In this document: positions 14,313 to 19,076 of the stretch, one piece after another
How positions within the stretch are numbered: position 1 is the stretch's first letter
Layout: every line of letters starts with the position of its first letter
NCBI GenBank assembly: GCA_038893995.1
Contig: JAWAQK010000007.1
Span: 1-57,314 of the forward strand
Reading direction: 5' to 3'
Source: Candidatus Thorarchaeota archaeon
GTDB taxonomy: Archaea; Asgardarchaeota; Thorarchaeia; Thorarchaeales; Thorarchaeaceae
DNA length: 57,314 bases
Position numbers and translations under genes: made by a program
The notes under the pieces: generated by a model
Told to the model about the DNA's origin: nothing
The model's input: the letters and a program-made list of their open reading frames with translations, nothing else
The model's database searches: none

Positions 14313-14410
14313 GACTCGAAACTGTGTCGGACTGTAATTTATGCATGAGCCTAGCTGGTTTCGACACATATAATACGGTGTACCACAGCCGGGTCCTCTG
14401 GCTGTTGAGC

Positions 14411-15808
14411 ATGACCAGACGCTTTGTTCCAGGTGGAGTCATGCCTGCCCTTGTGACGCCATTCACGAAGGACGGTGACTTCATTGAAGATGGCCTGAGG
14501 CAGGTCATCGAGTACACAATCCAGAAGGGTGTCTCGGCCATTGTGCCAGGAGGAACCACTGGCGAGTTTGTCTACATGAGGACTGAGGAACGAAAGAAAC
14601 TCCTCAGGCTTGCTGTCGAATTTGCCGACGGAAGGGTTCCTGTCGTCGCTGGAACGGGCCAAAACAGCTCTCGGGCAACACTTGCCCTCACAAAGTACGC
14701 AGCGGATATCGGTTGCCAGGCAGCCCTCGTGGTGTCGCCGTTCTATCTACGTCCGTCTGACAGGGGCTACTACGAACACTATGAGACAGTGGCTCGGCAG
14801 TCGGATCTTCCCATCATCCTTTACAACATTCCCCAATGCACGCTGGGACAACTGAGTGTCAATGTCGTGGAGGATCTGGCCGAGATCGACAACATAGTCG
14901 CAGTCAAGGACTCGAGCGGGAACATACCCTACACGATGGAACTCATCCAGAAGCTCAGCGGCAAGTTGCCAGTACTCATTGGAAACGATGAGTGTGTCCT
15001 TGCTGCTATTACTGCTGGAGCATCGGGTGCGATACTTGCCTCTGCAAACATCATTCCTCACATCTGGATCGAACTGATCAAGTGTGTACAGCAGGGGAAC
15101 ATTGCTCGTGCAGCAGAGCTTCAGCGCTCCGCTCAGACCCTTGCGAGGATAATCTCAAAGCACGGTGGTGCAGCCGCAGTCAAGGCGGCACTGAGATATA
15201 TGGGCATAGATGCTGGACGATCCAGACTTCCTCTCGACTCTGGTGGGACACTGACTGCAGAGGTGAGAGAAGAGATACGTGTCGAGCTCGAATCTCTGGG
15301 TCTCATTTCTCGCCCTGTCGGGGTAAGCACACCAAGTGTACCCCCGATCGGTGAGGTCCTCAGTGAGTCTGGAGTCAGTATCAGTCTTGAGGGAATTCGT
15401 ACAGGGTCCGGGTCGAGTGATCGTGCCAGCGTGACTGTGGCTGCCGGACCAAAGGGAGGTCCCCTGGGTCGGGCATTGGTGAGGCTACTTGTACGTCCCC
15501 GTGTGGGGCGAGAGGCACTCACAGTCATTCTGGAACCCAATCTCCCAGTCCGTCCGATCAGTATCATGTTGCCAGCCAGGAGAGTCAAGTCCCTGCGGCA
15601 GGCCTCTATGATCTACGGACCGGCACAGTCCGGTGCTGCGAGGGCGATTGCCAGCGCCCTGAGCACTGGACGCATACCGAAGGAGTCGGTCGAGAATGAT
15701 GTCATGGTCTTAGTTGTAGACATGGACCTGGACTCCAAGAACAGGCGAGAACTGACAGCCTCTGTGGAGACTGCAACCATGCGCGCGATTGAGGCTATAT
15801 GGAGATGA
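14411..15808 (+). CDS. DapA/NAL-family class I aldolase fused to degenerate formaldehyde-activating enzyme (Fae) domain, copy 1
   Basis: PALVTPF, GGTTGEF, YNIP, KDSSG; C-terminal GPKGGP, EPNLPVRP, YGPAQ (Fae-like). Confidence 0.85.
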   Translation: MTRRFVPGGVMPALVTPFTKDGDFIEDGLRQVIEYTIQKGVSAIVPGGTTGEFVYMRTEERKKLLRLAVEFADGRVPVVAGTGQNSSRATLALTKYAADIGCQAALVVSPFYLRPSDRGYYEHYETVARQSDLPIILYNIPQCTLGQLSVNVVEDLAEIDNIVAVKDSSGNIPYTMELIQKLSGKLPVLIGNDECVLAAITAGASGAILASANIIPHIWIELIKCVQQGNIARAAELQRSAQTLARIISKHGGAAAVKAALRYMGIDAGRSRLPLDSGGTLTAEVREEIRVELESLGLISRPVGVSTPSVPPIGEVLSESGVSISLEGIRTGSGSSDRASVTVAAGPKGGPLGRALVRLLVRPRVGREALTVILEPNLPVRPISIMLPARRVKSLRQASMIYGPAQSGAARAIASALSTGRIPKESVENDVMVLVVDMDLDSKNRRELTASVETATMRAIEAIWR

Positions 15809-17289
15809 ACGCAATGACGGAGGAATTTCGTTTCAAGGGAGTCTATCCGGCGCTGGTCACTCCATTCAATGAGAATGGTGTGGATGAACAGCGGCTTCGC
15901 AACCTGGTAGACTACGTCATAAGAGCTGGAGCTACTGGTGTGGTCCCTTGTGGTACTACTGGCGAGTTCACAAGCATGAGGTTTGACGAGAAGGTCGAGG
16001 CCTTCCGCATAGTGTGTGAGGCTGCCAAGAACCGCGTGCCCGTGATTGCGGGAACTGGAGCTGCCTATACCAACGAGGCAGTCAAGCTCACAAAGAGGGC
16101 AGCAGAGTTTGGTGCTGCCGCTGCTCTGGTGGTCACTCCCTACTTCATGAGACCCTCCAATAGAGAGATCTTTGAACACTTTGAGAGAATTGCTGCCAAC
16201 AGCGACATCCCCATTTTCGTGTACAACATTCCACAGGTTACAGGTGTACCCCTGCACTGGACAGTCGTCGATGGTCTCAGAGAGATCGATGGCATCATCG
16301 GATTGAAAGACTCAAGCGGAGACTTGGTCAATCTGACGACAATACTTGTCAGGAAGCCCGAAGACTTTCAGGTAGTTGTTGGTCACGACGAGGTTGCACT
16401 TCCAGCGCTTGCAGCAGGCTGCAACGGGGCTATCCTCGCAAGCGCCAACATATTCCCGGATCGCTACATCAAGATGCAAGCGGCATTGGCACAGGGTGAC
16501 CTGAAGAGTGCAATGATAATCCAGCGAAGCATACAGACAGCAGTCCGATTGATAGTCAATCGCGGCGGAGGGCTCGCCGTCAAGGCTGCTCTCAACATGA
16601 TGGGCATTGACGTCGGGCCCGCGCGACGGCCTCTTCAGATAGGAGATTCCCTTACGTACGACGACCTTGATGAGCTCCGTACATGCCTCGAGGACCTACA
16701 GCTCATCCCGCGTGGTCCAGTGACGTTCAGAGTCAACGGAAGAGAGATAGTATGTGAGTCGTATCCCAAGGCAGTCGGCCAGTCCCGTGATGTCGTCCCT
16801 GATTTCACTCTCCTGCATGGGGAGGCATTGACTGGTGCCGGACATGAGGTTGCACACGTTGACCTCGTGATGGGGGTCAAGGATGGTCCGATGTCGGCAG
16901 CCATTGAGGACGTTGGCAAGCTGTCTGAGGGCTTCCACCCCTCCAACATAATAGAAGATCTCGTTCCTCTGACGGTCTTCTCCCCAACAGTCAATGTGAC
17001 TGACGAGCGTCACCATCGGATGGTGTACGAGTTTGCTCAGAAGGCGGTCTCAGACGCCGTGAAGAGAACAGTCACTGACAGGATAATCCCAGAGGACCTC
17101 GTGCCCGACATGGCAATAGCAGTCAACGTGTTTGTCCACCCAAAGGCCATCAATCATCGTCGTGTACATCTAAACAACTTCCGTGCTGTGCGATTCGCAC
17201 TTCGAAGGGCGATTGAAGGTCGCCAGACTCCCGACGAGATCATTGCACACATTCGTTCGGCGCGACATCCTTTCGCCTATGACCCCTGA
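15805..17289 (+). CDS. DapA/NAL-family class I aldolase fused to Fae domain, copy 2
   Basis: PALVTPF, CGTTGEF, YNIP, KDSSG; C-terminal GEALTGAGHEVAHVDL, VFVHP, RHPF (Fae-like); ATGA overlap with copy 1. Confidence 0.85.
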   Translation: MNAMTEEFRFKGVYPALVTPFNENGVDEQRLRNLVDYVIRAGATGVVPCGTTGEFTSMRFDEKVEAFRIVCEAAKNRVPVIAGTGAAYTNEAVKLTKRAAEFGAAAALVVTPYFMRPSNREIFEHFERIAANSDIPIFVYNIPQVTGVPLHWTVVDGLREIDGIIGLKDSSGDLVNLTTILVRKPEDFQVVVGHDEVALPALAAGCNGAILASANIFPDRYIKMQAALAQGDLKSAMIIQRSIQTAVRLIVNRGGGLAVKAALNMMGIDVGPARRPLQIGDSLTYDDLDELRTCLEDLQLIPRGPVTFRVNGREIVCESYPKAVGQSRDVVPDFTLLHGEALTGAGHEVAHVDLVMGVKDGPMSAAIEDVGKLSEGFHPSNIIEDLVPLTVFSPTVNVTDERHHRMVYEFAQKAVSDAVKRTVTDRIIPEDLVPDMAIAVNVFVHPKAINHRRVHLNNFRAVRFALRRAIEGRQTPDEIIAHIRSARHPFAYDP

Positions 17290-17500
17290 CCAGTGGTCGT
17301 GGACACACTCGACAATGTGACGTGTTCCTGCACGTAGTGGGCGTTTCGGTCCTACCCTAGGGGTCATTCGACACCTCGTGGCAGAGGGCCCCGTTTCGAC
17401 TGACCTCTCCGTTGACCGTTTCTTAAGTTATTTCGGACAATAACTGTGGACTGCTTCTGACCACTCTTCCGTTTCGATCTCTCATTCACGGCGAGTCCCC

Positions 17501-17917
17501 CAGTGGGCTGTGGAAACGGTCAGGACGGCCTTTCCCTGCGGGGCCGCATGTTATATGTGGAAAGCGGGACACAATTACCAGACTGCCTCCGAAAGGTGTC
17601 TGTTCGGACCCTGTGGTGAGCCGCTGATGTCGGAACCTGCAGAGCGCACTTTGAGTATGTGTCTTATTCTGCAGCATGTGGCAAATCCGCGGCCATTCGT
17701 GGTGCGATACTCACAGGGGCAGTATTCGCAGCTGCCGGGAATGCCGTGGACATATCAGAAGGGGGCGATGATGGGGTACAGGCTTATTCTTGGGCCAGAG
17801 TAGAATCCTCTCAGCGGCTCACGATAGCCATGCTCCACTCGGAGGCGGTCTTCCTCATTCAGATCGACCCTGTCCATCTCCTCTCATAGCTGACTGACCT
17901 GTTTCCGACCAGCACTG
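17501..17917 (+). ncRNA. Candidate large structured non-coding RNA (unassigned family)
   Basis: Nested long-range stems 17501-17523/17894-17917, 17567-17571/17871-17875, 17580-17592/17839-17851 (13 bp, one U-G) and 17616-17627/17811-17822 (12 bp perfect), plus local hairpins, in a 1 kb gap with no credible ORF. Confidence 0.55.
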
Positions 17918-18290
17918 ATCCCGAATCCGGTGCGAGGCATGTCAGTTTCCCCCCTGCCCGCCACGAGCAAGCGGGCGTTTCAGCCTGACAGGTCGTGGTA
18001 CATGATCGCAGATTGGAGTGAAGCGTATTTCGCGCATGTCAGGTCTCAGCATGCTCTTGGATCGTCATCGCTACTGCTCAGATAGGGGTAACTGCCTCAT
18101 CGACCTGGATGAGTCTATTCGCGCCATCTGATAAGGATGTTCAATATGGTCAGGCCATGCTGGTTTCTCTCCCAAGACTGGCCCTTCCGCCGTCCAGTCA
18201 GGCGATGTTGATGGACACTCAATCTATCATGCGGTCTATGGAATGGCCTCGATTGACTACACCCGAATGATCCTGACGCAACTCTGCAGA

Positions 18291-19076
18291 TCATGTCGTA
18301 CATCTGGCGCGCGCCCTGGCCACGAGCGCTGCAAATGCCCCCGCTCCTATGCCATTGCCGATGTTCACGACAGCGAGACCTGGTGAACATGATTGCAACA
18401 TCGATGTGAGGGCGCCAACTCCCTCTCCCCCAAATCCATACCCGGTAGGTGAAGGAAGCCCAATCACAGGAACATCAACGAGAGCGGTCACAACAGCTGG
18501 CAGTGCTCCCTCCATCCCCGCGACAACTATGACTGCCGCCACATCATCGTCCCTCAGTCTTCTTATAGGCTCTAGGAGTCTGTGGATTCCTGCTACCCCC
18601 ACATCGTGAAACATCACCGACTCCACTCCCATGACGCGGGCCACTGCTGCTGCCTCCTCGGCGAGTGGAACGTCAGATGTTCCAGCAGTGATGATGGCGA
18701 TCTTGCCTATCGGCGTTGGAAGCGTCCATTCTGTCTTCCAGGCAAGTATCGTAAGGTGCTCTCCTCTACCGGAGACCCTGAAGAAGCAGTGCGGTAACGC
18801 CTCTCTCAGAGTCTTCTCATGCGACTCCTTTGCTCGCGCGACCAGAGCGAATCCGTTGATGGAGACCATGGCCCTCACTATCTCCAAAACCTCGCTGTCA
18901 TCCTTGTGTTGTGCAAACACTACCTCTGGAATTCCCTTCCTACCATGCCTGCCAAGATCCACGGAAGCAAAGTCGCCGACGATGGCAACTGAGTAGTCCC
19001 TTATCGTCTTCTCGACTTCGTCTATTGAGATCTTACCATTGACTAGGTCCTCGAGCAACATCCTCAGGTCGCGCAT
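18291..19076 (-). CDS. larB: Nickel-pincer cofactor biosynthesis protein LarB (PurE-like)
   Basis: RKGIPEVVF, TAGTSDVPLAEEA, DVGVAGIHRL, AGMEGALP, GYG, MLQSCSPG, VVNIGNG. Confidence 0.9.
   Translation of the reverse strand: MRDLRMLLEDLVNGKISIDEVEKTIRDYSVAIVGDFASVDLGRHGRKGIPEVVFAQHKDDSEVLEIVRAMVSINGFALVARAKESHEKTLREALPHCFFRVSGRGEHLTILAWKTEWTLPTPIGKIAIITAGTSDVPLAEEAAAVARVMGVESVMFHDVGVAGIHRLLEPIRRLRDDDVAAVIVVAGMEGALPAVVTALVDVPVIGLPSPTGYGFGGEGVGALTSMLQSCSPGLAVVNIGNGIGAGAFAALVARARARCTT

Follow-up and report, generated by a model that had tools for sequence, protein, structure and literature searches.

Our analyses revealed that a 417-nt rod of nested long-range helices in a Thorarchaeota genome occupies the slot that, in related Thorarchaeota, holds a small protein-coding gene (ORF2) whose start codon pairs with its own 3′ UTR through a covarying helix. 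The rod lies at positions 17501 to 17917 (+) of the window, by which we mean the whole 57,314-nt stretch of Candidatus Thorarchaeota archaeon contig JAWAQK010000007.1 (assembly GCA_038893995.1) that was analyzed and to which all coordinates given without a prefix refer. Its pairing is real, exceeds chance, and is biased to the plus strand, and the start-codon/3′ UTR helix of the gene family is solid. In the reading that we favor, to which we give about an even chance, the rod is a lineage-specific, over-extended fold-back transcript in which the RNA itself masks the start site and which may now be noncoding.

Structure and Energetics of the Rod

The rod lies in a 1-kb gap flanked by a gene for a DHDPS-Fae fusion protein (15799 to 17289, +) and a LarB/AIRC-like gene (18291 to 19076, −). 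Two tandem DHDPS-Fae fusion paralogs, which overlap by a few bases, span 14324 to 17289, an arrangement that is kept in relatives, with a CutA1 gene upstream. A first-pass annotation, made from the letters of the DNA alone, had called the gap gene-free. This is correct only in part, as a C/D box sRNA gene is present at 18039 to 18108 (−); it is convergent with the rod and belongs to the conserved locus, not to the rod itself.

Three nested helices build the rod. The outermost, H1, pairs 17501 to 17523 with 17894 to 17917 (+) with a duplex energy of −33.4 kcal/mol. By eye, it carries a 2-nt bulge and a 3-nt bulge around a 4-bp helix, as a bulge-helix-bulge motif for splicing or circularization might, whereas the family helix described below is continuous. 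H3 pairs 17580 to 17592 (AGACTGCCTCCGA) with 17839 to 17851 (TCGGAGGCGGTCT), both on the plus strand, with one U-G pair and a duplex energy of −29.6 kcal/mol, and was returned by the repeat finder as inverted repeat I5. The core of H4, inverted repeat I3, is a perfect 12-bp match between 17616 to 17627 and 17811 to 17822 (−30.7 kcal/mol); in its extended form, 17611 to 17627 with 17811 to 17827 (+), the helix covers 17 positions with one G-U pair and one mismatch. Above H4, an apical domain (17628 to 17810, +) folds into local hairpins in both the MFE and centroid structures, for example 17637 to 17643 with 17668 to 17674. The long nested helices of the first-pass annotation were thus confirmed in the sequence and in the duplex energies, and H3 and H4 also by the repeat finder. 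A further helix that it had listed, ggaca/tgtcc, exists as a 5-bp complementarity in the sequence but is absent from the MFE and centroid structures.

The folding energies favor the plus strand. The MFE of 17501 to 17917 was −171.1 kcal/mol on this strand (z −3.24), with 0 of 100 shuffles equally good, and −144.6 kcal/mol (z −1.11) on the minus strand. For a 279-nt core, 17578 to 17856, the plus strand gave a z of −3.80 (0 of 200 shuffles equally good) versus −1.39 for the minus strand. The stability of the plus strand is therefore beyond chance, and that of the minus strand is not. Moreover, the U-G pair of H3 becomes an A-C mismatch on the minus strand. This strand asymmetry argues for pairing at the RNA level, as the earlier proposal had it. 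As a control on the end-to-end pairing, the first 130 nt were paired with the last 130 nt in all 417-nt segments of the contig, on both strands. The pairing gain for 17501 to 17917 was −29.7 kcal/mol, a value reached by none of the 936 other segments (mean −8.6, SD 4.0, minimum −23.2 kcal/mol).

H3 and H4 were retained in the MFE and centroid structures across every context folded. H1, by contrast, is context dependent: in the centroid of a 706-nt fold, its 5′ arm pairs with 17413 to 17423 instead, and 17391 to 17408 and 17413 to 17422 are alternative partners of the same arm. The hexamer CGTTTC occurs on the plus strand at 17342, 17392, 17417, 17470, and 17976, with one GAAACG at 17513, all within 640 nt. 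Every copy of CGTTTC is a potential partner of the H1 5′ arm, and H1 formation therefore has several competitors. Nowhere else in the assembly is this hexamer pair clustered so densely, apart from the CRISPR array, which lies at a contig end (C48:1-550) and has the 30-nt repeat GTTTCAACACGACGATCGTTCTTCTGAAAC.

Once the helices were removed, the 5′ and 3′ stretches between them had no residual complementarity (P = 0.85 and 0.88). The complementarity is thus confined to discrete helices separated by unrelated stretches, and the rod is not a decayed palindrome; for the same reason, we rejected a decayed inverted duplication as the sole explanation.

Searches for a Known Identity and Further Copies

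When Rfam 15 was searched with covariance models, 0 matches were obtained at gathering thresholds in the whole window. In E-value mode, the interval 17250 to 18350 gave only C/D snoRNA-like matches, at 18039 to 18110, with none in 17501 to 17917; no known family was therefore matched in the rod. A tRNA/tmRNA scan found none. The elongated shape, length of about 300 nt, and nested helices of the rod are reminiscent of archaeal SRP RNA (RF01857), a likeness that the first-pass annotation had remarked on while finding no helix-8 motif and leaving the RNA unassigned. Unlike SRP RNA, the rod region has no Rfam match, and a full-length RF01857 match is found on another contig of the assembly (C2:48906-49217; 81.9 bits, E = 9e-19). 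RNase P RNA was likewise rejected as an identity, its gene being at C33:818-1155 (169.5 bits).

BLAST found one copy of the rod in the assembly (2.33 Mb, 91% complete), and the 19-nt arm occurs once even when three mismatches are allowed. With no partial copies and no matches in relatives, we rejected a MITE or transposon remnant, and the multicopy distribution against which the first-pass annotation had warned is not seen. A replication origin or ORB array was also considered. The window contains CCAGTGG...GGAAACGG, which resembles archaeal ORB cores. There is no AT-rich stretch, and clustered ORB-like repeats were not found (CCAGTGGAAAC gave four scattered matches), which leaves this candidate unsupported.

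BLAST of the 1-kb gap against 40 relatives, 85 genomes of the family, and 24 metagenome loci returned only C/D sRNA matches. The flanking DHDPS-Fae protein falls, at 90% identity, in a cluster with only L062 (GCA_038825165.1) and L063 (Logan), in which the gap is 100% identical and offers no variation. In the nearest distinct relative, L038, the flanking protein of which is 80% identical, ORF2 is normal and the rod is lacking; three further loci at 75 to 77% identity (L077, L078, and L080) have a normal or rearranged locus, again with no rod. In view of this, the earlier reading of the element as a stand-alone, unassigned large noncoding RNA family was not supported: no relative conserves the rod, which is syntenic with a small protein-coding gene that has a covarying helix.

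The Syntenic Gene in Related Thorarchaeota

In 33 distinct loci of related Thorarchaeota, the syntenic slot holds a 52- to 86-aa ORF beginning "MAETC...", which we term ORF2. The gene order is kept: DHDPS-Fae, (ORF1), a 16-nt motif, TATA, ORF2, its 3′ arm, the C/D sRNA, and the LarB-like gene. In finer detail, the interval in relatives comprises an optional ORF1, the 16-nt motif, a TATATATAC box, a conserved 5′ UTR with a GGAG site, ORF2, and a short 3′ UTR that is followed by a T-run and the convergent sRNA. The motif, with the consensus NTGGCCnnnTGTTAAG, is present in ∼26 of the 33 loci (L004, L005, L009, L011, L019, and others), 200 to 240 nt upstream of the ORF2 start. It occurs with or without ORF1 and reads as a start codon, three codons, and TAA.

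ORF2 in relatives is a real gene. Changes between its orthologs are biased to synonymous ones (11:2, 11:3). The protein forms ∼100 clusters, all from Thorarchaeota or Promethearchaeota, all hypothetical, and none with a Pfam domain. It is basic and soluble with no transmembrane segment (alignment A1 and AF2 model), and the AF2 model, which is confident (pLDDT 87), has a beta-alpha-beta-beta-beta fold. In a comparison of this fold with the PDB, the best rows were of the Roadblock/LC7 type, including an Asgard Roadblock, and were weak (E 0.15 to 0.6). ORF1, a small gene of 64 to 77 aa, lies upstream of the motif in many relatives (for example, L038:4236-4430 and L007:720-941) and shows faint, repeated MazE/AbrB-like Pfam matches (E about 0.1). 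Neither the window nor L080 has this gene. In L077 (4455 to 5100; 77% identity in the flanking protein), a different small gene, whose product has a hydrophobic segment at its N terminus, is present twice in the ORF2 slot, from which it follows that the interval is evolutionarily plastic.

The C/D sRNA is the only part of the gap that is conserved at the DNA level. By BLAST, it was found in 12 of 24 and then in 41 of 85 genomes of the same family. The RNA gives full-model alignments to snoR38 and snoPyro_CD, below the gathering score, and has boxes C, D′, C′, and D in order (CGAUGA...CUGA...GAUGA...CUGA) together with a terminal stem. No convincing rRNA or tRNA target was found in the assembly for either guide. 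In L004, L007, L020 to L022, L028, L038, and L046, the ORF2 start region (GGCUGAGACCUG) is the same sequence as the sRNA 3′ end, comprising box D and the terminal stem. The start region thus has two alternative 3′ partners on the plus strand: the 3′ arm of the same transcript and the sequence antisense to the end of the sRNA.

A Covarying Helix Ties the ORF2 Start Codon to the 3′ UTR

At every ORF2 locus examined, nucleotides +2 to ∼+16 of ORF2 (GGCUGAGACC...) are complementary to a segment of the 3′ UTR (GGUCUCAGCC) located 9 to 67 nt past the stop codon, a pairing that may also be written GGCTGAGACC/GGTCTCAGCC. We analyzed this helix in alignment A4, which contains 33 sequences, with controls in which the partner was slid by 1 to 3 columns and with 500 shuffles. 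In the true register, 84% of cells were paired, compared with 25 to 50% when the partner was slid. Both sides had changed in 9 of 15 pairs, and the observed values were reached by 0 of 500 shuffles. Specifically, the third codon is GAG or GAA opposite C or U (16 G-C and 15 A-U), and GCC occurs with G and GUU with A. MFE folds of the ORF2 transcripts of relatives contained the closing helix in all cases, with mostly negative z-scores.

Genus g11 separates the helix from the protein. Between its members L005 and L027, which have diverged by 23% at the nucleotide level, there are 3 synonymous versus 15 nonsynonymous codon changes, whereas coding pairs range from 11:2 to 11:9, the last at the divergence of the g11 pair. 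In a third member, L033, ACG replaces ATG. The g11 helix is nevertheless retained and is longer (16 to 22 bp); compensatory substitutions are seen among members of the genus, and the helix has G-U pairs that can form on the plus strand alone. As the g11 frame is free of protein constraint and the helix is kept, the family helix is selected at the RNA level, independently of the protein.

The Rod Compared with the ORF2 Transcript

The window has the synteny of an ORF2 locus: the rod follows the DHDPS-Fae gene and the 16-nt motif, here TTGACCGTTTCTTAAG (17412 to 17427, +), and precedes the convergent C/D sRNA. A MAFFT alignment from the motif to the sRNA with 17 relatives placed the landmarks of the window in register with those of the family; this alignment rests on short landmarks, BLAST having found nothing significant outside the sRNA. 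The distance from motif to AUG is 215 nt in the window and 207 to 237 nt in the family, and that from TATA to AUG is about 75 nt compared with 65 to 90 nt. The H1 5′ arm (17501 to 17523, +) is located before the TATA-like box, in register with GAAACGGCTTCTAG, an element that is semi-conserved in relatives; consequently, H1 would be present in the RNA only if transcription also began upstream. In the alignment, the TATA-like element itself, GTTATATGTG (17549 to 17558, +), falls opposite the TATATATAC box of relatives, with the spacing to the start codon (∼75 nt) unchanged. Judged from this match, it would be the promoter of an ORF2-type transcript starting near 17578 to 17582. H3 begins about 25 to 30 nt past the box, where an archaeal transcript would be expected to begin. 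Its 5′ arm (17580 to 17592, +) aligns with the conserved 5′ UTR element of relatives, TAGACTGCCGC, the counterpart of which reads CAGACTGCC from 17579 (+) in the MAFFT alignment.

An SD-like GGUGA (17614 to 17618, +) is found 8 nt before an AUG at 17627, which opens a 58-codon frame at the position of ORF2 (17627 to 17803, +). The frame starts ATGTCGGAACCTGCA, like the family ATGGCTGAAACCTGCA, and its stop codon (17801 to 17803, +) is preceded by ...GGCTTATTCTTGGG, compared with ...CGGCTCATTTTGAAA in the family. H4 encloses this frame exactly. Its 5′ arm (17611 to 17627, +) covers the GGUGA and the A of the AUG, and its 3′ arm (17811 to 17827, +) begins 8 nt past the stop codon. H4 spans −16 to +1 and the family helix spans +2 to +16, an upstream shift of ∼12 nt. 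By position, H4 may be regarded as the analog of the family helix, with homology putative. Given the syntenic slot, the SD-like site, the AUG, and the enclosure of the 58-codon frame by H4, a derived ORF2 mRNA, possibly one that no longer codes for protein, is the best reading of the element.

The 3′ side departs from the family. A segment of ∼115 nt (17804 to 17920, +) has no counterpart in the 17 aligned relatives and contains the 3′ arms of H4, H3 (17839 to 17851, +), and H1 (17894 to 17917, +). These arms lie 120 to 220 nt before the sRNA, within the inserted segment, whereas the family arm directly precedes the T-run; no T-run terminator was found after the 3′ arms of the window. At the position of the family arm GGTTTCAGCC, the window has AGCGGGCGTTTCAG (17970 to 17983, +), a likely relic of the ancestral 3′ arm. 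It continues as GCGTTTCAGCC (17975 to 17985, +), 41 to 60 nt before the sRNA end, as judged from the alignment and the positions of the 3′ arms of relatives.

The protein is no longer recognizable. An ORF2 profile (alignment A1) gave no signal against all six frames of the window or against its 58-, 76-, and 97-aa frames (negative hmmsearch scores), and a Pfam search gave no match for these three frames. The ORF2 protein was not found anywhere in this 91%-complete genome, nor was ORF1 found elsewhere in it (one query). The codon scores of the 58-, 76-, and 97-aa frames fall within the overlap of real genes and spurious ORFs. The score of the 58-codon frame is equaled or exceeded by 27% of spurious ORFs, and 7% of real gene windows do no better; the most gene-like values, 17% and 13%, belong to the 76-aa frame. 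The 58-aa frame had no match in the protein atlas, and a genuine ORF2 used as control likewise had none. In the public annotation of the identical contig, the only ORF called in this region is one of 40 aa on the opposite strand.

Discussion

The data suggest how a fold-back transcript of this kind might work. In relatives, a TATA-driven transcript with an SD site, ORF2, and a short 3′ UTR would be made, and the last bases before the T-run could pair with +2 to +16. The finished RNA would thereby hide its own start codon, and translation would take place mainly while the RNA is nascent. The paired RNA ends may also protect against exonucleases. The transcript predicted for the window has the same skeleton: the TATA-like box (17549), the transcription start (near 17580), GGUGA (17614), AUG (17627), and the stop codon (17801 to 17803). 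In this lineage, the ∼115-nt segment would have supplied new 3′ arms, such that H4 masks the SD site and the AUG, H3 ties the predicted 5′ end to the 3′ region, and H1 closes around both in any RNA that is also initiated farther upstream. Because the ORF2 protein is unrecognizable in the window, the RNA may no longer be an mRNA. It could still be an mRNA, tightly locked and encoding a 58-aa peptide that evolves fast; more probably, it is a noncoding structured RNA in which the cis fold is kept. A stronger statement, that in this one Thorarchaeota lineage ORF2 was lost while the self-masking helix was kept and multiplied into a 270- to 420-nt rod that works as RNA, seems to us rather doubtful. 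A possible link in such a case is the convergent sRNA, its 3′ end being the same sequence as the start-region arm of the family.

We weighed four other explanations against the reading as an over-extended fold-back transcript. The rod might be a stand-alone, trans-acting structured noncoding RNA gene of ∼280 to 420 nt, exapted from a former ORF2 transcript and serving as a scaffold, a sponge, or a partner of the neighboring C/D sRNA. The strong, plus-strand-specific structure would fit such a gene, as would the confinement of the complementarity to helices, the lack of protein homology together with weak codon usage, and the failure of searches to find the ORF2 protein in the genome; in g11, moreover, the fold outlives the protein. 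However, no homolog of the rod was found in the 85 family genomes or the 24 metagenome loci, and the SD site, the AUG, and the intact 58-codon frame are still present and exactly enclosed, which fits a cis-acting mRNA structure. We therefore consider a trans-acting gene unlikely. Our estimate is equally low for a neutral relic, in which ORF2 died and one or more template-switch or inverted-duplication mutations left functionless inverted repeats. That all 3′ arms lie in a single window-specific insertion of ∼115 nt, collinear and inverted relative to the 5′ region, speaks for such an event. So do the failure to find either the ORF1 or the ORF2 protein in the genome, the plasticity of the locus elsewhere (ORF1 is absent in L080 and ORF2 is replaced in L077), and the presence of the rod in one species only. 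Yet a relic would be expected to show graded similarity, and instead perfect blocks of 12 to 13 bp alternate with stretches that are not complementary. The wobble pairs and z-scores also favor one strand, and selection acts on the helix throughout the family, including where it has ceased to act on the protein, g11 being the precedent.

It is very improbable that the region is an ordinary protein-coding gene whose RNA structure is incidental. Open frames do exist, of 97 aa (17510 to 17803), 76 aa (17659 to 17889), and 58 aa (17627 to 17803); the second has the most gene-like codon usage, and the first starts GTG-GAA-ACG (M-E-T), reminiscent of MAET. Against this stand the lack of any Pfam match or ORF2 homology, codon scores that overlap with those of spurious ORFs, the public annotation, and the empty protein-atlas search, although the latter was equally empty for the genuine ORF2. 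We give almost no credence to a DNA-level element, be it a MITE or transposon remnant, an origin-like repeat array, or a cruciform. H1 does have the form of imperfect terminal inverted repeats, and the CGTTTC/GAAACG cluster is unusually dense. The element is, however, single copy, with no partial copies, and absent from the relatives searched; it has neither an AT-rich region nor clustered ORB-like repeats, an Orc1/Cdc6 paralog is 30 kb away, and the strand-asymmetric stability argues for RNA.

On the reading as an over-extended fold-back transcript, the closest system is the ORF2 fold-back mRNA of Thorarchaeota itself. The two share the slot, the 16-nt motif, the TATA-like box, the SD-like site, the distance to the AUG, a similar frame length, and, with H4 taken as the analog, long-range pairing that encloses the frame and would conceal the initiation region. 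The window differs in that its protein is unrecognizable, three nested helices replace one, the closing helix is placed ∼12 nt farther upstream so as to cover the SD site and the first base of the AUG, and the 3′ arms are in an insertion rather than directly before the T-run and sRNA. Pairing of a 5′ start region over a long distance is known from the fbi-tac pairing of the hok/Sok type I toxin mRNA and from the masking of the MS2 maturation-gene start. In hok, base pairing between the translation start and the 3′ end of the transcript leaves the full-length RNA translationally inert. The likeness of the Thorarchaeota fold-back to hok and MS2 would be one of 5′-3′ fold-back principle only: the host is an archaeon, and there is no sequence relation. 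Unlike a hok/Sok toxin, ORF2 is basic and soluble and has no hydrophobic toxin peptide, and no antisense RNA was identified. To our knowledge, very little is known of RNA-level regulation in Asgard archaea. In haloarchaea, translational regulation requires the two UTRs in combination, and communication between the 5′ and 3′ ends of the mRNA is thereby implied (PMC2636863). That case is a functional requirement with no defined covarying start-codon helix and concerns a different phylum and different genes.

Newly documented here is a small gene, specific to Thorarchaeota, in which a covarying helix joins the start codon to the 3′ end of the same transcript. It provides a concrete case of 5′-3′ communication within an archaeal mRNA, for which functional support has so far come only from haloarchaea (PMC2636863), and, if our proposal is true, no fold-back translational lock would have been defined in Asgard archaea before it. 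We read the element of the window as a new, lineage-specific variant of the same self-masking principle. Should the rod prove to be neutral debris, it would serve as a warning against calling noncoding RNAs from inverted repeats in a single genome. As we read it, the window may show what becomes of such a transcript after the protein is lost, the RNA fold staying in place and growing, and, if confirmed, it would be a clean example of an mRNA turned into a structured noncoding RNA.
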